34,003 nt of DNA from a virus (taxonomy: Duplodnaviria; Caudoviricetes), in the IMG/VR virus record IMGVR_UViG_3300037419_001409, positions 1 through 34,003 of that record, one strand, 5' to 3'. How positions within the stretch are numbered: position 1 is the first letter of the stretch; each line of letters begins with the position of its first letter. A program made the position numbers and the translations under genes. The notes under the pieces are model-generated. The model saw only the letters and a list, made by a program, of their open reading frames with translations. It did no database searches and was not told where the DNA came from. Shown one piece after another: positions 2,424 through 16,423 of this stretch.

Positions 2424-3286
2424 GAACGCTGAACAACGCCTGGACGGAAGCCGAAGACGCCCTGCTCAAGGCGAACTATCACCGGGGCTCTCGCTGGTGC
2501 TGTGACCGCCTGCCTGGACGCACACAGTCGGCCGTCAAGAAACGGGCTGCCGTCATCGGTGCCGCTCGGCCCGTCGCTGACGTGCATCACGAGTGGACGC
2601 CTCTGCTCGATGCACAGATCCGCCGCGCGTACCAAGAGGGCTTCGGTGCCCCCGCTGCCCTGGCTCGCAGCACGGGCATTCCGCCGAATTGCTTGAGCCG
2701 TCGCGCCGCTGCGCTGGGCCTCGGGGCTCGGCCCGTTCCCTTCAGCGCCGAGGAAGCGGAGTTTGTTGAGCGCCACCTTCATCTCAGCCGGAACCAGATC
2801 TCAAAGCTGATGGCGAAGCGCGGCTGGCATCGCTCAAAGCAGGCCATCCAGCGCTTTCTGCATGCACGCGGGATCGGGGGGATCGGCGACTACCTGTCCA
2901 TCCCGACGTTGGCCGCCTGCCTGGGCATGTCAGAGTTCTCGATACGGGGCAGCATCGCTCGCGGCGAACTGCTGGTGGAGCGGTCGGAAGGCGAGGAAGG
3001 GCGGATCGTCATCGCTCAGCCGGAAGTCGCGAGATGGATCATCCGGCACCCGCATCGGATCGACCTGCGCCGGGCGGAAGGCCCTTGGCTGATCGACCTC
3101 CTGGCTCGGTACGGCTCGCTCGGGCTGATCGATGAACGGGATCAGTGGCGTCGCATCCTGGCCCTGCACGAACTCGGCAAGAGCAACCAGGAGATCGCGG
3201 CCATTCTGGAGACGAAACCCAACATCGTCGCGAGCACGCTGTCTCAACGGCGGTCCAAGTCAGGCCAGCAAGAGGAGGCTGCGTGA
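2420..3286 (+). CDS. Multi-HTH DNA-binding protein with Myb/SANT-like repeats
   Basis: Repeats WTEAEDALL..PGRTQSAVKKRA, WTPLLDAQI, FSAEEAEFV; then LSIPTLAACLGMSE HTH and C-terminal GKSNQEIAAILE HTH. Confidence 0.7.
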   Translation: MRTLNNAWTEAEDALLKANYHRGSRWCCDRLPGRTQSAVKKRAAVIGAARPVADVHHEWTPLLDAQIRRAYQEGFGAPAALARSTGIPPNCLSRRAAALGLGARPVPFSAEEAEFVERHLHLSRNQISKLMAKRGWHRSKQAIQRFLHARGIGGIGDYLSIPTLAACLGMSEFSIRGSIARGELLVERSEGEEGRIVIAQPEVARWIIRHPHRIDLRRAEGPWLIDLLARYGSLGLIDERDQWRRILALHELGKSNQEIAAILETKPNIVASTLSQRRSKSGQQEEAA

Positions 3287-3516
3287 TGTACACCCTGAGA
3301 CCTGAGCCTTATCTTGAAGTGTCGATCTGGCCGCCCAAGATTATCTGCCGGCGCACCGTCTGGCACGCCTTCGGTCGCACCAGCCGATGGCTCAAGTACC
3401 TGCCATTCCCTCTCGCAAGTGACGTGTTCCTCGGCCGCGCGACGACCTTCGACGGCGCACGCAATCTCGGCAGAGGGTGGGATGAGCGGAACAAGCAGGA
3501 GGCGCCCCATGCCTGA
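3286..3516 (+). CDS. Small hypothetical protein, paralog of 499..711
   Basis: TGATG overlap; shares IWPP..RR.VWHAFGR.SR.LKYLP and DGARNLG.GW with 499..711. Confidence 0.7.
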   Translation: MYTLRPEPYLEVSIWPPKIICRRTVWHAFGRTSRWLKYLPFPLASDVFLGRATTFDGARNLGRGWDERNKQEAPHA

Positions 3517-4426: not shown

Positions 4427-4865
4427 GGTTTCTGTTCCCCGGTTGGATGAAATCGCGAATGACACGCCGTTGCGCCTTGAAGTGGCGGCTGCCCTCGCTT
4501 TTCCTGGCGGCGGCATGACGGTTAGCGGCCTCCGCAAGGAAGCCGCGCGCGGGCGCCTTGTCATCGAGCGCATCGCCGGCAGAGATTACACCACGTTGGC
4601 CGCCATAGCGAAGATGAGGGGGCAATGCCGCGTCCAGCCAAAGGGGCTCGTCTCTATCTCGTACCAGCCCGCCGAGACAAAGCTGGCCGCGTCACCCGAG
4701 CCGCCCGATGGGTCATCCGCGACGGCGACCGCATGCACCCCACAGGATGCGCTGCAAGCGAAGTTGCAGAAGCTCATCAAGCCTTCGCCAACTACCTCCG
4801 CGAAGCGCACCGGCCGACGCGCGGGCAACGTGGTATCGCTGAAATCCCGGTCGCAGATGTCCTGA
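4419..4865 (+). CDS. xis: Excisionase-like protein (start uncertain)
   Basis: DTPLRLEVAAALAFPGGGMTVSGLRKEAARGRLVIERIAGRDYTTLAAI, typical of rhizobial excisionases; directly upstream of and overlapping int. Confidence 0.8.
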   Translation: MSKVSVPRLDEIANDTPLRLEVAAALAFPGGGMTVSGLRKEAARGRLVIERIAGRDYTTLAAIAKMRGQCRVQPKGLVSISYQPAETKLAASPEPPDGSSATATACTPQDALQAKLQKLIKPSPTTSAKRTGRRAGNVVSLKSRSQMS

Positions 4866-5773
4866 ACATCTACGCCGACGATATCGTCTCACGGGATCCC
4901 GATGCCTCGCGCATCGCCCGGCGCATCGCCCGGCTGGCGGCATGGTGGGGCAATCGCACGCTCGCCCAGGTGACGGGCGCGACGTGCCGAGCCTATGCCG
5001 CATCAAGGCCGGGCCCAGGCGGCGCGCGGCGCGATCTGCAAGACCTGTCGGCCGCCATCGGACACCACCACCGCGAGGGCTACCATCGCGAGGAGATCAA
5101 GGTCTGGCTGCCGCCGAAGGGCAATGCCCGCGAGCGCTGGCTGACGCGATCCGAAGTCGCCAAGCTGGTGTGGACGTGCTGGCGGGCCCGTGAGGGTGGC
5201 GACCGGGAGGGCGAGGGCCGCTACACCATGCGCCACATCGCCCGGTTCATCCTCTTGGCCTACTCGACGGCGAGCCGGCCGGGCGCCGTGCTCACGGCGA
5301 GCTGGGAGGCGGCGTCGGGCCGGTCCTACCTCGACCTCGACCGGGGCATGTTCTACCGGCTGAAGGACGGTGGGCGGATCACCAACAAGCGCCAGCCGCC
5401 CGTGCCGCTGACCGACAAGATGCTTGCCCATCTGCGCCGCTGGCGTCGGCTTGGCGGATCCTACGCGGTGGAGTTCCGCGGCAAGCCAGTCGCCCGCATC
5501 AAAGTCGGGTTCGCCAGCGCCGTGAAGCTGGCCGGGCTCGGGGCTGGCGTGTCGCCGCACACGCTTCGGCATTCGGCCGTGACGCACATGCTGCTCGATG
5601 GCGTCGACCCGTGGCAGGCAGCCGGTTACGCGGGCATGAGCGAGGCCGTGATGAAACTGCACTATGCCCACCACCACCCCGATCACATGAGTGGCGCGAA
5701 AGCCTCGATGAGTGGGCGCAAGCGTTGGGCGACAGAAACGCTACAGATTGGCGTGAACCGAGCGCGAACATGA
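4625..5773 (+). CDS. int: Tyrosine recombinase / phage integrase
   Basis: Catalytic motifs TASR, TNKR, PHTLRHS and HYAHH; RERWLTRSE; followed by attP. Confidence 0.95.
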   Translation: MPRPAKGARLYLVPARRDKAGRVTRAARWVIRDGDRMHPTGCAASEVAEAHQAFANYLREAHRPTRGQRGIAEIPVADVLNIYADDIVSRDPDASRIARRIARLAAWWGNRTLAQVTGATCRAYAASRPGPGGARRDLQDLSAAIGHHHREGYHREEIKVWLPPKGNARERWLTRSEVAKLVWTCWRAREGGDREGEGRYTMRHIARFILLAYSTASRPGAVLTASWEAASGRSYLDLDRGMFYRLKDGGRITNKRQPPVPLTDKMLAHLRRWRRLGGSYAVEFRGKPVARIKVGFASAVKLAGLGAGVSPHTLRHSAVTHMLLDGVDPWQAAGYAGMSEAVMKLHYAHHHPDHMSGAKASMSGRKRWATETLQIGVNRART

Positions 5774-5947
5774 GCGCACAAACGCGAACGGTTGTCGTTG
5801 ATTTTATTGGCTTTTTCAGTAAAGCCGGACGTTATGAGCGGCCGGCTCTAACCATTGAGCTACGGGCCCGAAGCTTTATGCTTCAGTAGCTTAGCGCTGA
5901 TGCTGCCGGCCGGCGACAGGCTGGACGACAGAAACGGCGACAGAAAC
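5729..5947. other. attP: core AGCCGGACG-TTATGAG-CGGCCGGCT (5823-5847) flanked by arm-type repeats (G/A)CGACAGAAAC
   Basis: Inverted core arms around a 7-bp overlap equal to the tRNA anticodon loop. Arm repeats at 5729 and 5740 (degenerate) on the left, and 5913 (partial), 5925 and 5937 (12-bp period) on the right. Confidence 0.85.
5830..5869 (-). pseudogene. 5' half of tRNA(CAU), probably Ile2 (often annotated Met); attP identity block, not a complete tRNA
   Basis: Minus strand reads GGGCCCGTAGCTCAATGGTTAGAGCCGGCCGCTCATAACG (acceptor 5' strand, D arm, anticodon loop CTCATAA); no T arm or CCA follows. Confidence 0.85.
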
Positions 5948-5954
5948 CGCCTTT

Positions 5955-5983
5955 TGAGTACCTGCCGCCGAGCCATGCATCAA
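5955..5983 (-). promoter_or_regulatory. Putative sigma70 promoter pointing into the tRNA half
   Basis: Minus strand TTGATG-N17-TACTCA, about 85 bp upstream of the tRNA 5' end. Confidence 0.4.
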
Positions 5984-6097
5984 GGCCCCCTCCCCGCCTC
6001 TCAGGCGATTAGTCGGGCTTGGGGGCGGAGGGGCGTTCCGGCGCGCCAGCGATAGCGTCGAGCGCCTTGTCGCTGATCTCGGTGTGCGGCTGTCCGA

Positions 6098-6316
6098 TTA
6101 AGGCTTCCGGGCTCGGTCTGCAGCGATCCGCTCCTCAACGATCCTTCGCACCGCTTCCGAGAAGTTGGGCGCCCTGCCCGGCTGTTGCTTGCACCACTCT
6201 TCAAGTTCACGGACCCACCGCGCCGTGACGACGAGCTGCTTGCGCACGTCCGCCAATTCCCCTTCGGGCTCGACCCGTCGCGTCACCCTCGGCCCCGCCA
6301 TCGAAAATCTGATCAC
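6098..6316 (-). CDS. Ribbon-helix-helix-like regulator
   Basis: VRKQLVVTARWVRELEEWCKQQPGRAPNFSEAVRRIVE; GGAG RBS with GTG start; similar to 10016..10237. Confidence 0.7.
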   Translation of the reverse strand: MIRFSMAGPRVTRRVEPEGELADVRKQLVVTARWVRELEEWCKQQPGRAPNFSEAVRRIVEERIAADRARKP

Positions 6317-6389
6317 GGCGTCATAGCTCCGCTTGCCCTTAGCCTCAACATGTGTAACTTGAGCAAATCGCTTATGCAAGGGACCGGCT

Positions 6390-6977
6390 ATGGGCATCGT
6401 GGTTGAGATGAACCAGGGCGGCGCGAGCGCCCGCTCTGCGGCGGACATGGGCGCCCCTGATCTTTCTGATGAGAAAAGAAAGTCGCTTGAACAGCTACTG
6501 GGCTGCTATGATGAGGCGCTCCAGCTAGAACAAATTGCAAAGCTCGCCTTTACTGACCCTCTCGCTGCTAGAGATGCACTAAGATTATTCGGGGGAAATA
6601 GCGGGTTCGAATTCTTGGAGACCGCTATCTCGGCGTTCATTATGCGGTCTATCGCGGATAGCCGCTACCGCGAAGAACATGTCCGCAAAGAATTCTACGA
6701 CAACCTGGGTGCGTACATACCGGGAGCCACAAAAGCAGCCGTTCCGTTGTTCAAGAAGAACATTCCAGACGGTTTCATCGCTGTCGATGGAGAAACGGCC
6801 CCGGTAGAGATTAAGCGGTACGCTTTCGATGAGAAAGCGCTGGTGCAAATTCTTCGCTACATGACGGCGTATAGATGCGACCTTGGGTTCGCCGTTGCGC
6901 CAAAGCTCGCTTGCAAGCTGCCGGCCAACGTCCGCTTCGTAAAGGTTTTGCCTCCGGACCAAGAGGCGCGCCAATGA
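6390..6977 (+). CDS. PD-(D/E)XK nuclease-like protein
   Basis: IPDGF...PVEIK...ALVQILRYM (PD..EXK..QxxxY pattern); more AT-rich than neighbours; start uncertain. Confidence 0.7.
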   Translation: MGIVVEMNQGGASARSAADMGAPDLSDEKRKSLEQLLGCYDEALQLEQIAKLAFTDPLAARDALRLFGGNSGFEFLETAISAFIMRSIADSRYREEHVRKEFYDNLGAYIPGATKAAVPLFKKNIPDGFIAVDGETAPVEIKRYAFDEKALVQILRYMTAYRCDLGFAVAPKLACKLPANVRFVKVLPPDQEARQ

Positions 6978-7072
6978 CCGTGGCCGAGAAGACCGTCACG
7001 CAGGTGCGCGTCACGCCGAAGGGCCTGACCAAGCTCGCCAAGCTGCTGCCGCCGGCTGCCAGCCCGGTCTGA
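6974..7072 (+). pseudogene. C-terminal remnant of a KilAC/ANT phage antirepressor
   Basis: EKTVTQVRVTPKGLTKLAKLL matches the characteristic end of ANT/KilAC domains; only 32 codons. Confidence 0.65.
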
Positions 7073-7136
7073 TCAGAAACGGGTCAGGCGCGCGCGAAGC
7101 CCAGCCTGACCCCTCCCCTAACTCATAGGAGAGACG

Positions 7137-7382
7137 ATGACCCTGCCACTCCTTACGCCAGCCACCGCGCCCCTCACGCGGGACTTCGATTTCGTCGGCT
7201 GGGTCTGCGTCGCCCCGGAGGGCGACCCGCATTGGGGTTCGGCCCGGAGCGCCATGACTGACAGTCTGCATGCGTGCTTCGGAGCGGCTACGCCCGAGCG
7301 CCTGGACAGCCTCGCACGTAAGGGTTGGCGGTGCGTGCCGATTGGAGCCTTCGCGCAGTCCGCGCCTACGGGAGAGAAGTAA
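7137..7382 (+). CDS. Hypothetical protein
   Basis: AGGAGA RBS; TAATG overlap with next gene. Confidence 0.65.
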   Translation: MTLPLLTPATAPLTRDFDFVGWVCVAPEGDPHWGSARSAMTDSLHACFGAATPERLDSLARKGWRCVPIGAFAQSAPTGEK

Positions 7383-7591
7383 TGCCCGTGACGCTGCCCG
7401 GCTGGATCTTGTTCGCCGTGATGCTGGCCTCAAACTGCGTCGCCAGCTTCATGTCCGGAACCCTGCTCTTCACGGGCTTCGGCAAGCGCGAGCCGAAGTC
7501 GCTCCGCTACATGGTCACGGCCCTGGCATTCGGAGCCGTGATGATCGCCTCGGCCCTGCTGTTCATCTGGGTCGAGCCGAGGCCGGCGTGA
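7382..7591 (+). CDS. Small two-TM membrane protein
   Basis: Two hydrophobic segments (WILFAVMLAS...; YMVTALAFGAVMIASALLFIWV). Confidence 0.65.
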   Translation: MPVTLPGWILFAVMLASNCVASFMSGTLLFTGFGKREPKSLRYMVTALAFGAVMIASALLFIWVEPRPA

Positions 7592-7653
7592 GGCGCTGTC
7601 TCCTCCGTTCAAACGAGCGTTCAACCGGATGAAACACCCCGCAGGAGGGAACG

Positions 7654-8073
7654 ATGAGCAGCGCCGAAATCGACAACATCCTCGACCTCCTCGACGCGTT
7701 CGCGGACCGGCGCGGCGGCGGGAGGGAGCAGGCGTGTTTCCATGCCGCGAAGATCATCCGCGAGCTTGAGGCCGAGAACGCCCGGCTGCGGAAGGACCGC
7801 CTGGATTGGGTTGGCGCGACCTTCCACGAAGAAGACCGGGTTGCGGAGCTTGAGGCCGAGAACGCCAAGCTGGCCGCCTTCGCCCGCGAGATCATCGAGC
7901 CCGCCTTTGATGGGCAAGATGTGGACGGCGCCACGATCCAGCGCGTGGCGCTCCACTACGGCCTGCTGGCGGAAAGCAAGTACGACCCGGAGAAGCACGG
8001 CTCGTCCTTCGCCGAGCCGGGCGATCAGTGGTTCACCTACGCGGGACCGCTCGCCCCGCCGAACGCACGATAA
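7654..8073 (+). CDS. Hypothetical phage protein with internal ELEAENA repeat
   Basis: AGGAGG RBS; ELEAENA coiled-coil motif occurs twice. Confidence 0.75.
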   Translation: MSSAEIDNILDLLDAFADRRGGGREQACFHAAKIIRELEAENARLRKDRLDWVGATFHEEDRVAELEAENAKLAAFAREIIEPAFDGQDVDGATIQRVALHYGLLAESKYDPEKHGSSFAEPGDQWFTYAGPLAPPNAR

Positions 8074-8093
8074 TGCGGCTTAGCTTGCGTTCG
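8060..8093. repeat. dif/Xer-like inverted repeat CGAACGCACGATAA-TGCGGC-TTAGCTTGCGTTCG
   Basis: 14-6-14 imperfect palindrome with a TAA-N6-TTA centre; the TAA is the stop codon of the upstream gene. Confidence 0.5.
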
Positions 8094-8126
8094 GAATGAC
8101 CCGCACCCGACCCTGGAGAACCAGAG

Positions 8127-8357
8127 ATGACCGAGATGATTGAGCGCGTCGCGAGAGCCATCGCCGATGCCTTCATGGAAGACTATTCGGAGGCGCCGAA
8201 CCTGTATGACGAGATGGCCGAGGCCGCCATTGCCGCTATGCGCGAACCGACCGAGGCGATGATTGAGGCCGGGCGCTGGCCTGCCGAGGACGATGGCCCG
8301 GCAGCTTGTTGGCAAGCGATGATCGGCGCCGCCCTCACCCCCACCAAGCAGGACTGA
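8127..8357 (+). CDS. Conserved small phage protein (MIERVARAI...AMREPTEAM family)
   Basis: Motif pattern common in alphaproteobacterial phages; GGAGA RBS; distant similarity to 20701..20967. Confidence 0.75.
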   Translation: MTEMIERVARAIADAFMEDYSEAPNLYDEMAEAAIAAMREPTEAMIEAGRWPAEDDGPAACWQAMIGAALTPTKQD

Positions 8358-8361
8358 GAGC

Positions 8362-8619
8362 ATGCTGACCGACAAGCGCCGTCGCATCCTGCGATGCCTG
8401 GACAAGATCAACGAACGCAACGAGGCGTGCCCATCGGCCTATGAGGTTGCGATCCGGTGCGGAGAGCATCGCACCGCCAGCGATTGGGCTATCCGCCCGC
8501 TTGCCGACATGGCCGAGAAGGGCTGGACGGAGCGTGTCGGCGTCACAGTCGGCAACGCTCGCACGTGGCGCATCACCGAGGCTGGCCGGGCCGCCCTCGC
8601 CCATTCCGTCGATGCATAG
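8362..8619 (+). CDS. Winged-helix-like small protein
   Basis: MLTDKRRRIL...SAYEVA...L..MAEKGW.ER...WRITEAGRAAL. Confidence 0.65.
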   Translation: MLTDKRRRILRCLDKINERNEACPSAYEVAIRCGEHRTASDWAIRPLADMAEKGWTERVGVTVGNARTWRITEAGRAALAHSVDA

Positions 8620-8676
8620 CCCGAGCTTGTCGGCAAAACGGTCGTATTCCCGCCACGGAGAGGCATCGAAACTTTT

Positions 8677-8729
8677 TAGGCCCCTGGTTCCTTTTTCCGT
8701 TGACGCGGTAGGAACTAAGGGCCTATAAG
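8677..8729 (+). promoter_or_regulatory. Promoter with two TAGG-N9-CCT(A/T) operators
   Basis: TTGACG (8700)-N18-TATAAG (8724). Operators at 8677-8693 and 8709-8725 are near-inverted copies of each other. Confidence 0.6.
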
Positions 8730-8755
8730 AGGTCATCAGAGACGGAGACGCCGCC

Positions 8756-8980
8756 ATGACCCGCACCGAACTCAACGCCCTCCTCGCCGCCGCCACGAAG
8801 CGGATGATCTCTGAGCGGAAGACCATCAAGCTGCCGACCGGCGTCCTGAAGACCTCGACCTTCGTCCGCGAGGTTTACGACCTGCCGACCGGCGAAACGG
8901 TGCGGATCGTTGAGGACCGGCTCTATGACGGCCCGAGCAACCGCAACCACTGCACCTACCGGCTTGAGGTGGCGGCGTGA
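8756..8980 (+). CDS. Hypothetical protein
   Basis: GGAGA RBS downstream of the promoter; GTGA overlap with the HTH gene. Confidence 0.7.
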   Translation: MTRTELNALLAAATKRMISERKTIKLPTGVLKTSTFVREVYDLPTGETVRIVEDRLYDGPSNRNHCTYRLEVAA

Positions 8981-9210
8981 CCGCCGCCGAACTCCGCGAG
9001 CTGTTGCGGTCCCTCGGCCTTAAGCAGGTCGGGGCGGCCCGCCTGCTCGGCAAGAACCCGCGCACGGTGCGCAAGTGGGTCTTGGATGAGGCGCCGGTCG
9101 ATGAGACCGCCGCTCGCTTCCTCCAATACATCCTGGCGAAGGGCGACAGCGCGGAGGAGGCGTTGCGCGTGCTGGAGCCCTTCCTTCGCCAAAACCAAAC
9201 CCCGGAATAG
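8977..9210 (+). CDS. Xre/Cro-type HTH regulator
   Basis: MTAAELRELLRSLGLKQVGAARLLGKNPRTVRKW. Confidence 0.85.
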   Translation: MTAAELRELLRSLGLKQVGAARLLGKNPRTVRKWVLDEAPVDETAARFLQYILAKGDSAEEALRVLEPFLRQNQTPE

Positions 9211-9241
9211 CGGCCGTTTTTCGGGACATCAGGAGAAGGTG

Positions 9242-9475
9242 ATGGACTGGCATCCCATGGATACCGCCCCGAAGGACGGGACGGCGTTCCTCGCCTACTG
9301 GCTGCGCGAGCATACGGGCGGCGAGCGATACGAGGCCGAGCAGCCCTACGTGGTCGCGCACTATTACCGCGGGCGCATCTACCCATCATGGATCGGCGAG
9401 GACGTGCCGACCCATTGGCAACCGCTTCCCTCACCGCCGTCCGACAAAACGGACGCGCCGGCTGCGTCGGAATGA
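9242..9475 (+). CDS. DUF551-like protein
   Basis: WHPMDTAPKDGT...PTHWQPLPSPP signature; AGGAG RBS. Confidence 0.85.
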   Translation: MDWHPMDTAPKDGTAFLAYWLREHTGGERYEAEQPYVVAHYYRGRIYPSWIGEDVPTHWQPLPSPPSDKTDAPAASE

Positions 9476-9513
9476 CGGTCGGTTTTCGGGGCAGCCGGCG
9501 CTAGGCTTGCGGG

Positions 9514-10029
9514 CTAGGCCCCTTGGCCCTCACCCCGGCGAGCCAGTTCGCGTTCGATGGCTTCGCGGATGAAGCCCGACCGGGTTTCGTCGTTGCCCAG
9601 CACCGCATCAATTCGCGCGACGGAGCCCTTCGGCAGCCGCATCATGAACTGCTCAGCGAACCCGGTCCGCCGCGCGCCAGGGTCCAACTGCGGGATCAGA
9701 TTACGATGGTCGAGCTGCGCCATGTTGGCGATGCCGTGCTCTACGGCGACCCTGGCCTCGTCTAGGGTCACGGTGAACCACTCGCCCCGATAGTGCTTAT
9801 CGCGCAGCCAATGATGGACGTACCGCTCCACGGCGATAGCCTTCTGTGCCTTCACTGGCCACTGGCCGAGCACGCGCAAGGGATGCCCATCCCGCCCCTG
9901 CGCCTGAAGCTGCTTCAAGCGGGCTTCCGGCACCATTGCGTGCCCGATCTTTAGCGGCCCGTCATCTGGTCCAATGGCGTAGAGGAAGCAGATCACGCCG
10001 TCGCGCGAGAGAGAGCTAGCGTTTGGCAT
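9514..10029 (-). CDS. GIY-YIG (T5orf172-like) nuclease fused to a C-terminal RHH domain
   Basis: FLYAIG....LKIGHA..PEARLKQLQ...VERYVH.....RGEWF; C-terminal MRLPKGSVARIDAVL..ETRSGFIREAIERE. Confidence 0.8.
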   Translation of the reverse strand: MPNASSLSRDGVICFLYAIGPDDGPLKIGHAMVPEARLKQLQAQGRDGHPLRVLGQWPVKAQKAIAVERYVHHWLRDKHYRGEWFTVTLDEARVAVEHGIANMAQLDHRNLIPQLDPGARRTGFAEQFMMRLPKGSVARIDAVLGNDETRSGFIREAIERELARRGEGQGA

Positions 10030-10237
10030 TGCCGCGCCCCTCGCTCTCCAGGCCGATCTCGACCAGCCGCCGGATCGCAGCCGACAGGTTCGGGACTGGG
10101 CGCTGTGTGGCCCGCCAATCCTCTACGAGGTCGATCCATGAACGCGGCGCGACGAGCTGCAAGCGCTCCGTCTTGCTCTTCTCGTCCAGCTTCGGCCGCA
10201 TCCGCCTGTCCGCATCGTTTTTTCCGACCCGGATCAT
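10016..10237 (-). CDS. Ribbon-helix-helix-like regulator
   Basis: TERLQLVAPRSWIDLVEDWRATQRPVPNLSAAIRRLVEIGL; AGGGGG RBS. Confidence 0.75.
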   Translation of the reverse strand: MIRVGKNDADRRMRPKLDEKSKTERLQLVAPRSWIDLVEDWRATQRPVPNLSAAIRRLVEIGLESEGRGNAKR

Positions 10238-10247
10238 TACGTCCCCC

Positions 10248-10280
10248 TTGCCTATCTTGCCAATGGTGTGTAACTTACAC
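10248..10280 (+). promoter_or_regulatory. Putative promoter with palindromic operator GTGTAA-C-TTACAC
   Basis: TTGCCT-N17-TAACTT; palindrome at 10268-10280; the same TGTGTAACTT occurs at 6351-6360. Confidence 0.5.
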
Positions 10281-10311
10281 CTCATTGGCAGGAAACGCAA
10301 GGAGACGCCCG

Positions 10312-10674
10312 ATGGACGAGACCAAGCTGCCGAAATGGGCGCGGGACAAGATGGAAGCACTCCGGCGCGAGGCGAGCGACCTGAGAAAGGATCGGGATGC
10401 CCTGCTCGGACAGGGCGACCCGTCGCGCTGCCGAGACCTCTGGTTCGAGGGCTACTATGGCGACGAGACTGCGTTCCCCGCGCCTCTGTACGGCCGGCGC
10501 CTGATCTTCCGAGGGTCTACCGGCAAGATCCAAATCACGGGCGAGCACGCAATCCGAGACAGCGGAGAGACGTGGCTAAACATCAACGGCATTGACGGGG
10601 CCGGTCTGATTGTCCGGCCACACGCATCAAACGTCGTCATGATCCGCGTCGCGGGGCACGGCGAGATCAGCTGA
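10312..10674 (+). CDS. Hypothetical phage protein
   Basis: AAGGAG RBS; MDETKLPKWA...LIVRPHASNVVMI. Confidence 0.75.
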   Translation: MDETKLPKWARDKMEALRREASDLRKDRDALLGQGDPSRCRDLWFEGYYGDETAFPAPLYGRRLIFRGSTGKIQITGEHAIRDSGETWLNINGIDGAGLIVRPHASNVVMIRVAGHGEIS

Positions 10675-10733
10675 CCCTTCGCTAACCCCGAAGGCCGGCA
10701 AAACGGCCGAATATCCGACATCAGGAGAGAGCG

Positions 10734-11051
10734 ATGAGCCAACACACACCCGGACCATGGCGCGTGTTCACGACGCCTGACAATTCAAAGATCATCGGCA
10801 TTGGCGAGCGTACCGGCGACGGCATAGCAGACTGCGGCTTTGGTGTTTGGCGGGGCGGCAGCGAAGAAGCTCGCGCTAATGCTCTGCTCATGGCCGCCGC
10901 GCCTGAGCTTCTGGCCGCGCTCAAGTGGTTCATCGACGATATCGACGGCACGCACACCGCCATGGTCGATTTCGACCGCAACGTGGAGCTTGCCCGCGCA
11001 GCTATCGCCAAGGCCGAGGGGCGCGACACAACATCTAGTGTGTCGGCTTAG
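10734..11051 (+). CDS. Conserved small phage protein (HTPGPW...ANA.L.AAAPELL family)
   Basis: Common phage motif; AGGAG RBS directly after a family-1 site. Confidence 0.8.
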   Translation: MSQHTPGPWRVFTTPDNSKIIGIGERTGDGIADCGFGVWRGGSEEARANALLMAAAPELLAALKWFIDDIDGTHTAMVDFDRNVELARAAIAKAEGRDTTSSVSA

Positions 11052-11080
11052 CGGCGTTTTCACGACATCAGGAGACGGTG

Positions 11081-11263
11081 ATGGACGAACCTGCACAGCC
11101 CAGGCCAGCAACATACGTGAGCGACCTGATCTATGAGGGTGTACGGCAGAAGTCACCCGAGGAGGCCACCGCCCATATCGAGCGGTTGCGGCGAGCCTAT
11201 GCGCGCCGCGGGCAGTCATTCCCGAGGCCCCCGTCCGACAAAACGGACGCGCCGGTCAAGTAG
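11081..11263 (+). CDS. Small hypothetical protein
   Basis: AGGAG RBS; bounded by family-1 sites; ends PPSDKTDAP like 9242..9475. Confidence 0.6.
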   Translation: MDEPAQPRPATYVSDLIYEGVRQKSPEEATAHIERLRRAYARRGQSFPRPPSDKTDAPVK

Positions 11264-11374
11264 GGAAAGCGGCCGTTTTCCAGACATCGCTCCGGGGTGG
11301 CTCCGGAGCCGATCAAAACGCCCCTGATCGTGTCGGGAATGCGTGTCAACTATTCAATCGTCGGAGAAACGGTG

Positions 11375-11767
11375 ATGCCTGATAATCCCGACACGGCGCT
11401 GCCGGCCGACATCGCGGCGGCGATTGAGGTGTTTCGGTGTGCGGCGCGCGATGAGACGCGATACCCCGACGGCGCGAATATGAGCGCGACCGCATCGGCC
11501 CGCGCCGCCCTCACCGCCGCTATCTTCGCCCGCCTCGCCGCCGCCGAGGCGAAGCTGGCGCACTGCGAAAAGACCATGGCGCCGCTGAGCAACGACGGCC
11601 AAGCCGTTTGGGTGGATGGCACCGGGCTTGTCCCGCTCGACTACTCGCAGGGCCGCGACCTCGCCGCCGCCCTCGCCCGCGCGGAGCGGCTGGAGGCCGA
11701 GCGAGACGCCGCTATCGAGCGCATCATCAGCCTGGAAAAGCGCATCGACGCGATGATGCGGCTCTGA
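11375..11767 (+). CDS. Hypothetical Ala-rich coiled-coil phage protein
   Basis: GGAGA RBS before MPDNPDTALP. Confidence 0.7.
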   Translation: MPDNPDTALPADIAAAIEVFRCAARDETRYPDGANMSATASARAALTAAIFARLAAAEAKLAHCEKTMAPLSNDGQAVWVDGTGLVPLDYSQGRDLAAALARAERLEAERDAAIERIISLEKRIDAMMRL

Positions 11768-11814
11768 ACATGGCGGAGACGGTAGAACTCGAACGGTTTA
11801 GCAAGGGGAATACA

Positions 11815-12030
11815 ATGAGCGACGAAGGAACCGAGTGGTTTTGGCGCATCGTTGACGCCAACGGCTTAGGCGACGTCCCGAGCGACGAGGGGCCAGCCCT
11901 TCGGCTGCTGTGCGAGCGTGCGGCCAAGGCGCAATGGCTTAAGGCCGAGAACGCGCGGCTACAGGCCGAGCTAGAGACAGCCCGGCACACCATCGCGGCA
12001 ATGGCTGGCCACATCAACGCCCCCGCCTGA
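11815..12030 (+). CDS. Small hypothetical protein (alternative in-frame start at 11770)
   Basis: AAGGGG RBS; coiled-coil LKAENARLQAELE. Confidence 0.65.
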   Translation: MSDEGTEWFWRIVDANGLGDVPSDEGPALRLLCERAAKAQWLKAENARLQAELETARHTIAAMAGHINAPA

Positions 12031-12632
12031 TGGCGGATGGGATTACGGCCATTTCGGCAAGTAATTCAAGAGCGGGGACTGTTATGAAGATTGAGACGGC
12101 AGGATTGCTAACAATAGCCGACGCATTGGAGCAAGAAGGAAGGCGTCTCGCTGCCGGGTGTATTCGAGAGGCCGCAGCCGAAATCTCCGCCCTACGTGCC
12201 GCGCAAGTTGGGGCCGGTGATGGGGCCGAGAATGAGCCGGGCGCCACGCTCGACGGGCGACTGAAAGCCGCCGGCATGTTTACGGTCACGGAGATGATGG
12301 GACAAACGCCCCTTAGCCGGTGGCAGGTTCATGCCGGAATGAGCGGCCTTGAAGCCTTCGGGGAATGGCTCGACCGCAAGACCGCGGAATACACCCGCAT
12401 GCGGGCCGGCTATGAACTCGGCGACAAGGACAAGTCAGACGAGCTTTACGAGTGGGTGCTCGCCCATTCTGCCGCCTTCGCCACCATCCGCGCGAACTTC
12501 ATAGCGGCAAGGGATCGCCAAGCGGCGGTCAATGTTGGGGCCCGAGTTGGGGCCGGCGAGGATCAAGCAACGCCGTCCGCATGATACTTCAACGGGTTAG
12601 CGAACATTTGCGAATGTAGCAATCTCCGCCAT
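12030..12632. mobile_element. Putative non-autonomous attL-cargo-attR mini-element 1
   Basis: Core at 12030; arm pairs at 12207/12219 and 12534/12546; TGATACTTCAA box at 12582; core right arm at 12625. Confidence 0.55.
12084..12584 (+). CDS. Hypothetical phage protein (alternative start at 12030)
   Basis: ORF spans mini-element 1; RLKAAGM.TV.EMM...PL..W..HAGM domain. Confidence 0.7.
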   Translation: MKIETAGLLTIADALEQEGRRLAAGCIREAAAEISALRAAQVGAGDGAENEPGATLDGRLKAAGMFTVTEMMGQTPLSRWQVHAGMSGLEAFGEWLDRKTAEYTRMRAGYELGDKDKSDELYEWVLAHSAAFATIRANFIAARDRQAAVNVGARVGAGEDQATPSA

Positions 12633-12653
12633 ACCGAAGGCCAGGGGTTAACG

Positions 12654-12905
12654 ATGACCGGCACAGCTCAGATCAGCCTCGAAACGGGGCGCAAGTTTCC
12701 ATACGATCAAGGCGAGCGTCGCCGGCCACCGAAGGCGAAGGATTGGGCAGAGGCCGCCGCCCGTGGCGTGCTGGCCGATCTCTGCGACCGCCGCGGGATC
12801 AAGTGGGCGCTGCAAGACGACGAGATCACCGACGACGTGCGCCGGGAGATCGTCGCCTCGCTCGCTGCAATCATCCGCCTCGCACACGAACAGGCGTCGG
12901 CCTGA
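12654..12905 (+). CDS. Conserved small phage protein (AARGVLADLCDRRGIKW family)
   Basis: ORF between two family-2 sites; AGGGG RBS. Confidence 0.75.
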   Translation: MTGTAQISLETGRKFPYDQGERRRPPKAKDWAEAAARGVLADLCDRRGIKWALQDDEITDDVRREIVASLAAIIRLAHEQASA

Positions 12906-12907
12906 GT

Positions 12908-13422
12908 ATGGCGGACGGGGCCACGGAAATTTCGGAAGGTATTGCGATGAGCGAAACAGTAATCACGGACGTGCTTCCGGGTCTTCGTCAGCTTCACGAG
13001 GAATTGCTCGCCGAAGGAAAACTAGAGCGCAGCGTAGACGTTATGTTCGCCATCCTCGAACTTGAGCGACTGTCCGCCAAACCCGTTGGGGTGAATGTTG
13101 GGGCGGGATGGAGGCCAATTGAGACGGCGCCGAAGGATGGCAGCCGCATTCTGATCTTCAACCCGAAGAGTGACCGCCATCCTGTTTGCGAGGTGGCATG
13201 GGCTTACGTCTATGAGGGCGGCCCCGGCTACTGGTCCACGCCTCACGGCATCAGCGGTCGAGGCTATACGATCTTACCGGAAGCTCCAACGCATTGGATG
13301 CCGCTTCCCGAACCGCCATCAGATGTTGGGGTAAATGTTGGGGTAAGCGCCCCATCAGTAGAGCCCCCGCCTGATACTTCAAAGGCTTAGGGCATAGTTT
13401 GCTCGGACGGGGCCACAGACAT
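12908..13422. mobile_element. Putative non-autonomous attL-cargo-attR mini-element 2
   Basis: Both ends share CGGACGGGGCCAC; arm pairs at 13085/13097 and 13325/13337; TGATACTTCAA box at 13372. Confidence 0.65.
12947..13390 (+). CDS. DUF551-domain fusion protein (alternative start at 12908)
   Basis: WRPIETAPKDGSRIL...PTHWMPLPEPP domain, flanked on both sides by VGVNVG. Confidence 0.8.
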   Translation: MSETVITDVLPGLRQLHEELLAEGKLERSVDVMFAILELERLSAKPVGVNVGAGWRPIETAPKDGSRILIFNPKSDRHPVCEVAWAYVYEGGPGYWSTPHGISGRGYTILPEAPTHWMPLPEPPSDVGVNVGVSAPSVEPPPDTSKA

Positions 13423-13442
13423 CAGGGAGATGAGGAAGGTCG

Positions 13443-14048
13443 ATGGACGCGGTAACGCCTAAGAAGTGGACCAAGCCGACAACAAGGCCAGAGACCGCGT
13501 CCGCTCGCTTCCATGCGAAGTGGATCGGTGAGCCCAATAGTGGCTGTTGGCTTTGGCTCGGCGGCCTGTCTGCTAACAAGTATGGCTCAATGCATGATGG
13601 GGAGCGGATGTGTGGCGCGCATCACTTCTCGTATCGGCTCCATCACGGGCTAATCCCGAAGGGCATGTTCGTTTGCCACTCCTGTGACACGCCAATTTGC
13701 GTGAACCCGGATCACCTGTTCCTCGACACACCATGCGGGAACCAAGCTGACATGGTGAAGAAGGGGCGAGCACGCGCGGGCAATCCAGAATGGTGGCATT
13801 CGGAGGAGCTGCGGAAGAAGGTTCAGCAGGACCCGCGCCCTTACCGCGTGATCGCTGAAGAGTACGGCTTGAAGTTCAACACGGTGAAGGCATTCAAGTC
13901 GGCCGAACGTAAGGGCGATTGGCGCCGGAACCTACGCAGCATCCGGATCGAGACTGCCCGGCTGCGAGCGGCGCTTCAGCAGATCGCTGGCATGACGCAG
14001 GCGGACGAGATGGCCGAGGTGGCCAAGCGCGCGCTGAGCGGCGACTAG
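13443..14048 (+). CDS. HNH endonuclease (HNH_3-like) with C-terminal HTH
   Basis: SGCWLWLG...YG...AHHFSY..HHG.IP.GMFVCHSCDTPICVNPDHL......N.ADMVKKGR. Confidence 0.9.
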   Translation: MDAVTPKKWTKPTTRPETASARFHAKWIGEPNSGCWLWLGGLSANKYGSMHDGERMCGAHHFSYRLHHGLIPKGMFVCHSCDTPICVNPDHLFLDTPCGNQADMVKKGRARAGNPEWWHSEELRKKVQQDPRPYRVIAEEYGLKFNTVKAFKSAERKGDWRRNLRSIRIETARLRAALQQIAGMTQADEMAEVAKRALSGD

Positions 14049-14082
14049 TGGCGGACAGGGGAGAACCCATACCAGGGAGAGA

Positions 14083-14334
14083 ATGATGCAAACGGAGCTT
14101 AAGCCGGCGCAGGTCGATGCCGCGTACCGGATGTTCTACGGCGAAGGCAAGAACCTCGGCGAGATCACGAAGGAACTCGGGTGCGGGATCTATGACCTGT
14201 CGCCCTGGCTCACGGCGCCAGCGCTGCGGATTGGGCGCGAGGCGCGAGAAGACGCCTCCGAACGGATCAAGATCCTTTGTGCGGAGATCAAGCGCCTAGA
14301 AGATGCAAACGACCGCCTGACCTCGCGGCCGTAA
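14083..14334 (+). CDS. Small HTH-like hypothetical protein
   Basis: GGGAGA RBS; EGKNLGEITKELGCGIYDLSPW. Confidence 0.65.
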   Translation: MMQTELKPAQVDAAYRMFYGEGKNLGEITKELGCGIYDLSPWLTAPALRIGREAREDASERIKILCAEIKRLEDANDRLTSRP

Positions 14335-14388
14335 GGGTATGGCGGACCGGGGCTCCGCCATGCGCCAAGCTAAGCAGTTGACGCGCAC

Positions 14389-14421
14389 GAAAAAGCCCGC
14401 CTCGGCTGGGCCGGGCGGGCT
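14389..14421 (-). terminator. Intrinsic terminator (possibly bidirectional)
   Basis: AAAAAGCCCGCC...GGCGGGCT hairpin with a U-tract on the minus strand; near-duplicate at 15760. Confidence 0.7.
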
Positions 14422-14495
14422 CTGGCAGACACGGGCGCGAGCCAGAAGGGTCTCCGCCCCTGGCCGAGCACCCCGCCTCACGCTAGCTCGGCGGC

Positions 14496-14723
14496 ATGTC
14501 TGAACGCCCGCCCAAGCGCCACATTGAAGCCCTCCGCGCCTGCCGCGTCTGCCGTGGCGGGATGCGCTACGAAGCCCACCTGAGGTCAATGCTGGCCCTC
14601 CGGGAACTGGGGTACGTGGAGGACAGGCCGCTCCGGAGCAGACCGAGAGAGGTACGGTGGTTCCTGACACCGGCCGGGCGGGATCTGCTTGAGGCGTTGG
14701 GAACAGGCGAGCCGGAGGATTGA
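14496..14723 (+). CDS. Small winged-helix-like hypothetical protein
   Basis: L.ELGYVE...WFLTPAGRDLL; no SD sequence, with GCTAGCT shortly upstream (possibly leaderless). Confidence 0.6.
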   Translation: MSERPPKRHIEALRACRVCRGGMRYEAHLRSMLALRELGYVEDRPLRSRPREVRWFLTPAGRDLLEALGTGEPED

Positions 14724-14859
14724 GGCACCGGAACGAAAAGGGCCCGGACAGCGGGGGGTACCGGGTCTGTCGCTAAGGGCACAAGCCTGCGCGGGCATCG
14801 CGTGACAGCCACACAACCCTGCGTTACGCCCACGCTTGAGGGGCTAAGGCGAGACCGAC

Positions 14860-15744
14860 ATGACCGACAGCCGAACCGGCATCGAGCGCACCAAAGACGC
14901 ATGGGCTGTCATCAGCCCGGAGCGATGCCTCTGGAACTACCCTTACACCAATGAGCTCGTCAGCAAGCGCGCGGGTGATCCAGCCAGGGGCGACTGGTAT
15001 CAGCAGGTCGGCGTACGACACCTCGCCGGCCGGCAGCCCGGCCGCGCTCTGTCAATCGGCTGCGGCATCGGATCGTGGGACCGCGCCTTCTACAAAGAGG
15101 GCTGGTTTCGCGAAGCCGTCTGCACCGACATCTCGGACGGCGCCGTTGCCACGGCGGCCTCTGTCGCGGAGGCTGAGGGCCTGCCGCTCCGCTACATCGC
15201 GGCGGACCTCAACAGGGGGCTGCCGGAGGGCGCGGAAGGCCCGTTCGATCTGATCTATGCGGTGGCCGCCCTGCACCACATCGACGCCCTGGAAAGTCTG
15301 CTGTCCGCCTGCCATGACCGCCTGACCGCGGACGGCCTGCTGATCTTTCAGGAGTATTGCGGGCCGTCCCGGTTTCAGTGGAAGCCGAAGACGCTTGCCC
15401 TGGCCAACGCCATCCTCGACCTGCTGCCGCCCGAGCTGAAAGGCCCCATCGAGCGGATCAAGCGCCCGCCCTATTCTGAGTTCGTCGAATACGACCCGAG
15501 CGAGAGCGTGCGCAGCGCCGAGATCATGGACCTGACCGCGATGTTTTTCGACATCGTCGAGGTTCAGGACATCGGTTTTACTCTGACGCAACCGCTGCTC
15601 AACCCGATCCTGCGCCACTTCGACGATGCCAATCCGCTGCACGGCGCCATCGCGAAGCTGATCTTCCTGTTTGAGGAGACGCTGATTGACGAGGGCGTGA
15701 TCGAGGCGGACACGAAGGTCGTGGTCGCGCGCAAGCGGAGGTAG
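14860..15744 (+). CDS. Class I SAM-dependent methyltransferase (moron)
   Basis: ALSIGCGIG motif I, TDISDGAV, ADLN, FDLIYAVAALHHI, L..DGLLIF.EY.GPSRFQW. Confidence 0.9.
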   Translation: MTDSRTGIERTKDAWAVISPERCLWNYPYTNELVSKRAGDPARGDWYQQVGVRHLAGRQPGRALSIGCGIGSWDRAFYKEGWFREAVCTDISDGAVATAASVAEAEGLPLRYIAADLNRGLPEGAEGPFDLIYAVAALHHIDALESLLSACHDRLTADGLLIFQEYCGPSRFQWKPKTLALANAILDLLPPELKGPIERIKRPPYSEFVEYDPSESVRSAEIMDLTAMFFDIVEVQDIGFTLTQPLLNPILRHFDDANPLHGAIAKLIFLFEETLIDEGVIEADTKVVVARKRR

Positions 15745-15759
15745 GCTGCGGCACGAACG

Positions 15760-15795
15760 AAAAAGCCCGCCACGGCGGCTGCCGGGCGGGCTCTT
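15760..15795. terminator. Intrinsic terminator between the convergent methyltransferase and the late operon
   Basis: AAAAAGCCCGCC...GGCGGGCTCTT hairpin. Confidence 0.75.
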
Positions 15796-15820
15796 GGTCT
15801 TGTCGGTGGTGGAGAGGCTA

Positions 15821-16423
15821 TCAGGGCGGATCTGCGGTCGCGTGCTTCTCCCGGCTATTCAGCACCGCAGAGGAGTGGGCGGAGCCTGACTGGATCTCCG
15901 AAACCCGCTCCTTCAGCCACCCCACGACCGGCGAGACATCCGGTCGTAGGTGAACGATGACGAAGCCGAGGATGAGGCTGATCACAAGAGCCCAGGCGAC
16001 GCGTCCCCACCGGGTTCTGGGAGGCTCCCTCGCCATGTCCTTGGGGGCGATCAGCGAGTAGAAGCAGCCGAGCCCCACAAGCCAGATCCACCACCCGTTA
16101 AGCTCAGAGTTGACCATCCAAGCCGGCTGTCCAGCCATCCGCCAGAGCAAGAGCCACACCGCCCCGCCGAACACTCCGGTCAGGAACATGACCTGACCCA
16201 TGATGCTCTGCTGAGCTGAGACCGGCGAAGGCCGCAGGATGATCTCCCGGAAGGCAGGGAACCACGCGAGGATCGCGGTCGCGCTGAAAACGATCATGAT
16301 GACCCGAAGCCACTCGGTCTGAAGGTTCGTCGGCAGGAACGGCGCCACTAGCCAGTAGGACAGCGCCGAGGCCAATCCGATCCAAAGCGTTAGGCTCCGG
16401 CGGAAGCGGGCGGTAAAGGTCAC
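15821..16423 (-). CDS. Multi-pass membrane protein
   Basis: About five hydrophobic helices; last gene of the lysis cluster. Confidence 0.8.
   Translation of the reverse strand: MTFTARFRRSLTLWIGLASALSYWLVAPFLPTNLQTEWLRVIMIVFSATAILAWFPAFREIILRPSPVSAQQSIMGQVMFLTGVFGGAVWLLLWRMAGQPAWMVNSELNGWWIWLVGLGCFYSLIAPKDMAREPPRTRWGRVAWALVISLILGFVIVHLRPDVSPVVGWLKERVSEIQSGSAHSSAVLNSREKHATADPP

Follow-up and report, generated by a model that had tools for sequence, protein, structure and literature searches.

The stretch of DNA analysed here, referred to below as the window, is a linear virus record of 34,003 nucleotides (IMG/VR record IMGVR_UViG_3300037419_001409; Duplodnaviria, Caudoviricetes) in which early genes are followed by a tyrosine integrase gene, about 10 kb of small genes and, on the minus strand, genes for lysis and a Mu-like tail. 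Six repeats of about 28 bp border a series of small gene units in this record. An earlier description made without database searches (the sequence-only reading) had interpreted them as Xer-like recombination sites that delimit gene cassettes. We describe them here as copies of site I, the sequence at which a family of small serine resolvases carries out crossover; the last copy is part of a full res site. The sites, the units obtained by cutting the array at the site centres, and the integrase gene are the following (ORF, open reading frame; RBS, ribosome-binding site):

8628 to 8655, plus strand: isolated site I copy 1, centre GT, at the res-distal end of the array; accessory score -78
8642 to 9213, plus strand: cassette 1, 572 bp; ORF 8756-8980 and ORF 8977-9210 (phrog_3865, stop inside the site arm)
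9200 to 9228, plus strand: isolated site I copy 2, centre GC, with an extra right-arm base and an in-frame TAG at positions 9-11, followed by an RBS
9214 to 9478, plus strand: cassette 2, 265 bp; DUF551 gene 9242-9475
9465 to 9493, plus strand: isolated site I copy 3, centre GT, with genes converging on it from either side
9479 to 10706, mixed strands: cassette 3, 1228 bp; T5orf172/MUG113 gene 9514-10029 (minus), DUF7239 gene 10312-10674 (plus) and a small ORF ending at 10016 (minus) for which no family match was found
10693 to 10720, plus strand: isolated site I copy 4, centre GC, followed by an RBS
10707 to 11054, plus strand: cassette 4, 348 bp; phrog_1273 gene 10734-11051, stop inside the site arm
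11041 to 11067, plus strand: isolated site I copy 5, 27 bp long and lacking one base at the centre
11055 to 11272, plus strand: cassette 5, 218 bp, the res-proximal unit; ORF 11078-11263, for which no family match was found
11259 to 11286, plus strand: site I of the full res, centre GC
11287 to 11393, plus strand: accessory part of res, score +47.8 with a matrix built from plasmids only
4625 to 5773, plus strand: tyrosine integrase (Int), given as context only and not as the cassette enzyme

All six repeats of the sequence-only reading are present in the window. In a leave-one-out matrix scan the five ungapped copies scored 19.5 to 25.3 bits, and no sequence other than the six repeats reached such a score. 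With a matrix that includes the window sites, a null model of second-order Markov type yielded 0.07 matches of at least 19 bits per 34 kb. The proposed relation between sites and genes was also confirmed. An in-frame stop codon forms the last three nucleotides of the left arm (site positions 9-11) at 9200, 9465 and 11041, the right arm runs straight into TCAGGAGA, the RBS, at 9200, 10693 and 11041, and the five units closed by the sites hold 2, 1, 3, 1 and 1 likely genes. The sites are better read as 13-2-13 than as 11-6-11: four of the six positions of the supposed spacer (1, 3, 4 and 6) vary, position 1 tracking the unit on the left and position 4 the unit on the right. Copy 5 is likely dead, and contigs of run X2 show C or T at its missing central base. 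The sequence-only reading had overlooked the 107-bp accessory block (11287-11393) that completes the last copy as a full res site. This block has a conserved spacer, three co-oriented half-sites (11331-11342, 11344-11355 and 11359-11370) and one inverted half-site (11382-11393), an arrangement read from the sequence that may differ from that of Tn3, in which accessory sites II and III are inverted pairs. Position 11393 is the point at which resolvase genes begin on plasmids; the window has ACG there.

Pattern scans of viral contigs led to six further phage records with arrays. A pattern based on the RBS provided G001, G002 and G003 (3 of 21 loci were real), and the block downstream of the last site was used alone to find G004, G005 and G407, in each of which the core site lay at the expected distance and further sites lay upstream. 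The arrays contain three (G001, G002 and G004), four (G003 and G407) or six sites (G005), which together with those of the window amount to 29. All six share the layout of 3 to 6 sites with res as the last one, and their genes differ. These related records support the claim that the repeats are cassette boundaries of a shuffling platform. Matches of at least 19 bits were confined to a single array in the window and in the five records read whole; 20 kb were read in the case of G407. The accessory pattern was also found in cellular collections, where the core site was absent from 7 of 7 metagenome and 6 of 6 GTDB loci, and these 13 loci were taken as chance matches. Comparison of the array DNA with 50,697 annotated phages gave a single 53-bp match, and none of 22 viral loci encoding the cassette-4 protein had an array.

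The identity of the sites became apparent from plasmids. Comparison of the G003 platform with plasmid sequences returned 17 weak records, and the top three are intergenic in Methylobacterium plasmids, directly 5′ of genes annotated as "recombinase family". The plasmid protein P0001 has a Resolvase domain (E 3e-41) and an HTH_7 domain, and its closest solved relatives are annotated as a DNA-invertase and the gamma-delta resolvase. Plasmids encode 35 relatives of P0001 at E<=1e-60, of which 26 come from Methylobacterium or Methylorubrum; the resolvase family of these sites is common on Methylobacterium plasmids. A set of 15 plasmid loci was assembled from 12 of the 35 relatives and the first three loci. 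A matrix derived from phage sites only had its best match exactly 134 bp 5′ of the resolvase ATG in 13 of the 15, and the same peak was present in 11 of the 12 loci chosen on protein similarity alone. Phage and plasmid res sequences can be aligned over about 135 bp, up to a terminal CCGAC-ATG that is kept in G004 and G005 with another gene behind it. In the reverse comparison, the plasmid-only accessory matrix scored +10.6 to +61.2 at the last site of all seven arrays and -53 to -104 at the remaining 22 phage sites. Every phage array is one full res preceded by two to five lone site I copies.

The central dinucleotide is GT in 13, GC in 13 and AC in 2 of the 29 phage sites, one having a deletion, and CG stands on both sides of the centre in 25; the 13 plasmid centres are AC (5), AT (5), TT (2) and GC (1). 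A variable centre between fixed CG pairs matches the 13-2-13 layout of the crossover sites used by serine recombinases, and resolvases cleave at the central 2 bp of site I (PMC12217951, PMC9943657). The six repeats of the window are copies of this 28-bp crossover site. Stop triplets at positions 9-11 are a feature of the phage sites (11 of 29 versus 0 of 13 on plasmids), and 8 of these 11 close an ORF of at least 72 codons. The Xer-type tyrosine geometry originally proposed, and with it Int or the host XerC/D as the enzyme, would account for 28-bp dyads at unit borders, and a tyrosine integrase is indeed nearby in the window. However, the homologous sites adjoin small serine resolvase genes instead, four positions of the hexamer vary, and the switch of inheritance falls on the site centre, as described below. 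Furthermore, the only Phage_integrase match in each of G001 to G003 is never behind res and is far from the array in G001 and G003, and the Int homology block shared with Methylobacterium aquaticum stops at a tRNA-like sequence at 5869. Sites for Xer or for the phage integrase are, on this evidence, an explanation that is largely refuted.

The two loci without the 134-bp peak, L090 and L093, are from a single plasmid. Both flank transposase-like genes, and the sequence that takes the place of the expected one is common to them and appears to be an insertion into res. Between site I and the accessory part, L093, L090 (NZ_CP155008.1) and L127 (NZ_CP155001.1, 51797) have a transposase-ATPase element whose end sequence is the same in each. 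Res-hunter transposons insert in this manner. Such insertions may be another way in which lone site I copies arise.

Units are present or absent as a whole between sites. Cassette 2 is missing in G005, where the neighbouring ends are the same and the end of unit 1 meets the start of unit 3 within one site. Cassette 3 is missing in G003, again with the same neighbouring ends, so that a unit-4 homologue directly follows cassette 1, and in G407 the end of unit 1 is joined to yet another start type. When the arrays were cut at the site centres, common end types enclosed different interiors; for example, G003 and G005 keep the ends of cassette 1 around a different interior. The genes differ between units whose ends agree, which suggests that other processes replace the interiors. 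The arrays have an integron-like polarity, with one platform site, many simple sites, and units that come and go intact. A contig from run X1, a run that may be the source of the window and is thus not independent of it, joins 9204 to 9475 and skips cassette 2; its letters resemble G005, and it was read as a relative rather than as an excision product. The cover of the window by run X1 has a hole at 9527-10313.

The point of exchange was located by comparing pairs of sites that share one flank, the thresholds for a shared flank being our own and the pairs not representing independent events. Pairs sharing only the left flank (n=16) were 0.70 identical in columns 1-12, versus 0.60 when permuted (p=0.007). 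Pairs sharing only the right flank (n=29) were 0.77 identical in columns 15-28, versus 0.70 (p=0.015), and column 15 taken by itself gave 0.77 versus 0.48 (p=0.007). The best inheritance split is after column 14 of 28. There is thus moderate evidence that inheritance switches at the exact site centre. The suggestion of the sequence-only reading that a palindromic spacer would permit inversion was not borne out, for the common cassette types have one orientation across all seven arrays. A role of the sites as operators, as elements associated with gene starts, or as hairpins in RNA was considered as a further explanation. Three window copies lead into an RBS, copy 1 is 45 bp 5′ of a promoter-like -35 box (cassette 1 has a sigma70-like promoter read as TTGACG at 8700 and TATAAG at 8724), and a resolvase or the protein P0004 described below could repress at res. 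Nevertheless, copy 3 is found between converging gene ends, only one of the six copies folds better than shuffled sequences at z<-2 (RNA parameters, top strand), a single array per record holds all sites, and units change at them, all of which makes a regulatory or RNA element very improbable.

A resolvase domain was not found in the window, G001 to G003 or G005, and the cognate resolvase gene, present on the plasmids, is behind res in none of the seven arrays. G004 and G407 encode a distant resolvase away from the array, which was rejected as the cognate enzyme on the basis of its 37% identity to P0001 and its remote location. No large serine recombinase was found in five records. Nor was a second full res found: six records have a single accessory block each, and so does the 20-kb locus of G407. 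The lack of a cognate resolvase in the phage records searched suggests that the enzyme likely acts in trans. In G005 the position of the native resolvase ATG is occupied by the start of P0004 (L051:10079-10711), a protein of 210 amino acids with two HTH_7 domains. The last one is 59% identical to P0001 and retains the resolvase segment RDTFYSYFP, so that P0004 looks like a relic of a lost resolvase gene. Its N-terminal part aligned weakly with the HNH-type nuclease PacI (Z 6.1, root-mean-square deviation 3.4, 82 residues, rank 2), and this domain may be an HNH-type nuclease. P0004 is a possible res-targeted nuclease or repressor. If a protein of this type cut at or near the sites, repair could drive the exchange, an idea favoured by the location of its gene at the res ATG, by the conserved segment and by the PacI alignment. 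On the other hand, it was seen in one of the five records searched with P0001, Z values below 8 are common by chance, Foldseek gave no match at E<=0.001, and just two close relatives were found, with one helix-turn-helix domain each. We consider cutting by P0004 improbable.

Lone site I copies also occur on plasmids that have the enzyme. Plasmid NZ_CP099615.1 has three co-oriented copies (17898, 12584 and 10448) upstream of res and the resolvase gene. They surround units of 2-5 kb, and the copy at 10448 has a left flank as in res and a right flank as in the other lone copies. NZ_CP155001.1 likewise has three co-oriented lone copies. One site I-bounded unit of the former plasmid (L126, 12878-17840) includes bacteriorhodopsin and beta-carotene dioxygenase genes and an IS91-type element.

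We propose, with a probability of about 0.62, that related phages exchanged whole units at site centres, likely through low-frequency catalysis by a Methylobacterium-plasmid resolvase acting in trans. An ancestor would have captured a res-resolvase module and then lost the catalytic gene, G005 retaining its DNA-binding end. In a plasmid-carrying host the resolvase would load onto the phage res and onto single site I copies, and rare res x site I or site I x site I exchange could delete units as circles, insert units beside res, or join the upstream array of one co-infecting phage to the downstream part of another. Mismatched 2-nucleotide overhangs would be tolerated if one strand were sealed and the other repaired, which would explain the centre mismatches and the fact that position 15 tracks the downstream unit.

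A number of points weigh against this proposal. Resolvases are textbook one-way, two-res, intramolecular enzymes; those that have been studied require two full res sites, and two such sites in direct repeat were not found in the phage arrays. Tn3 resolvase requires all three subsites, and reactions between molecules are blocked by its synaptosome (PMC9943657). Recombination of site I with site I was undetected for Tn3, as cited in PMC12217951, where intermolecular res recombination of SGI1 is described as very low. Neighbouring centres match in 6 of 20 pairs and the last two sites share a centre in 3 of 6 arrays, neither better than chance. The sites at 9200 and 9465 have one additional right-arm base and that at 11041 lacks a central one, and the limits of the crossover comparison given above apply. 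The order of the common unit types is mostly kept between phages, so loss and exchange fit better than free shuffling. Circles or empty sites of the window phage were not seen in the contigs, which were the only material searched. Three or more copies were present in only 2 of 15 plasmids scanned, the other 13 having one or none under strict patterns. Finally, the window is estimated to be 61% complete, and the Methylobacterium host is one that we infer.

In the main rival explanation the sites are resolvase-derived fossils now used as short homologies by phage recombination functions, without participation of a resolvase. No cognate enzyme was found in the phage records searched, neighbouring centres mismatch, unit interiors swap too, and the window encodes NinB and a Gam/Gp157-like protein. 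A precedent is found in the PeSL repeats of T4-type phages, which border small variable genes that are gained and lost, with mini-circles demonstrated (PMC2839356); PeSLs are promoter-terminator motifs with crossovers at varied places. Unlike them, the phage repeat described here is an enzyme crossover site with a central split, it has no consistent hairpin, and copy 3 lies between converging ends. The split at the exact centre speaks for a resolvase, though a central conserved block would favour crossovers there too. In addition, the sequence and spacing of the accessory block are kept in seven of seven arrays, and fossil homologies leave the origin of isolated site I copies at gene ends unexplained. 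We judge this rival unlikely, with enough in its favour to be kept in mind, and prefer exchange catalysed in trans by a plasmid resolvase. A broader version of the latter is possible but somewhat below even odds: an active serine-resolvase cassette system (a "serine-resolvase integron") in which temperate phages and plasmids of Methylobacterium would share a pool of site I-bounded cassettes, and the plasmid resolvase would excise cassettes and insert them in trans at the resolvase-less res. If so, this resolvase family would relax the two-res rule, phages would use it as a gene-capture device, and plasmid and phage gene pools would be linked.

The array can be compared with known systems. In integrons (intI-attI-attC) a complex platform site ends a polar array of simple sites, with small units and the stop codon often in the site. 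The phage array shares the terminal platform site, the small units and the stops that often fall in the site; unlike integrons, it has serine-resolvase sites without an adjacent integrase or an attC-like hairpin, and some units bring their own promoter. In pdif modules 28-bp sites bound modules and XerC/D is supplied in trans. The phage array resembles these in its 28-bp module-bounding sites and probably in an enzyme supplied in trans, and differs in enzyme class, geometry and the terminal full res. As in the res sites of small serine resolvases (Tn3/gamma-delta and SGI1; PMC9943657, PMC12217951), there is a 28-bp dyad site I with accessory half-sites, and the plasmid homologues are directly upstream of the resolvase start codon. 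The phage differs from them apparently in the half-site arrangement, and further in having one full res plus two to five isolated site I copies with no cognate gene found, and in that its sites border gene units and do not form a cointegrate-resolving pair. In Tn5501, TnTsp1 and Tn4662a homology breaks at the central dinucleotide of site I, which was read as intermolecular resolvase recombination (PMC7157771). Those are single swaps, each element having a full res and a resolvase, and involve neither arrays of single-gene units nor a phage. The layout is integron-like yet not an integron, it is res-derived yet not a resolution module, and it is not Xer.

No title or abstract opening describing site I arrays in phages was found in the literature covered, most subscription journals being outside that coverage. 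The present case stands out by its occurrence in phages, by lone copies of site I that have no cognate gene beside them, by a matching family on plasmids of a cultured genus, and by the mapped crossover. The exchange of small accessory genes between phages at precise gene borders is usually ascribed to illegitimate or short-homology recombination. Here the borders belong to a named family of enzymes encoded on plasmids of bacteria that can be grown, so that the matter is open to direct testing. The existence of lone site I copies in natural arrays suggests that this family works beyond the two-res rule, which is of relevance to recombinase biology and engineering.

Regarding the host, the best match of Int in the plasmid collection is Methylobacterium aquaticum (68%), and the DNA homology of this block stops at window position 5869, at the edge of a stretch that we take to be tRNA-like and that may be attP. 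Contigs show host tRNA-like loose ends there, ARAGORN found no tRNA, and an Rfam search over 5700-15900 gave nothing except one sub-threshold miRNA match. Within the attP-like segment 5733-5950, GACAGAAAC repeats flank half a tRNA (5830-5870) in reverse orientation. No array sites were found in 31 kb around the M. aquaticum Int homologue. At E<=1e-60 P0001 was absent from 401 sampled alphaproteobacterial genomes, and the searches reached no host genome or prophage.

Other repeats were observed in the window. An identical 25-bp block at 9437-9461 and 11231-11255, just 5′ of copies 3 and 6, reads in frame as PSDKTDAP in two unrelated genes and looks, by its letters, like a half-site of another resolvase. 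An exact 18-mer upstream of the same copies was found at two loci in viral contigs, both attributed to chance. A second repeat family is found 3′ of res (12534-12608, 13085-13105 and 13325-13420) and in G001, G003, G004 and G407. It consists of paired GTTGGGG repeats, many of which are read in frame where genes end, and a GATACTTCA..TTAG core follows them at a distance of about 30 bp. The family is common to the relatives, reordered among them, and resembles tyrosine-integrase attachment sites. The family had no plasmid match and phage matches of 19 bp only, and neither an integrase match in 39 viral loci nor an adjacent integrase was found. The motif TGGCGGA..GG directly follows stop codons at 11772, 12030, 12908, 14049 and 14339, as well as in G001, G002 and G407, and is possibly a third border family; we take its reverse complement to look like a tRNA 3′ end. 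At 8058-8102 the window has a block of 45 bp, including GCGGCTTAGC, that recurs in G002, G003, G005 and G407 in different gene contexts. The early region has a 214-bp direct repeat (492-705 and 3276-3489, 72% identity), and the accessory region ends with a methyltransferase gene (14860-15744) between two similar terminator-like blocks at 14384-14423 and 15754-15794.

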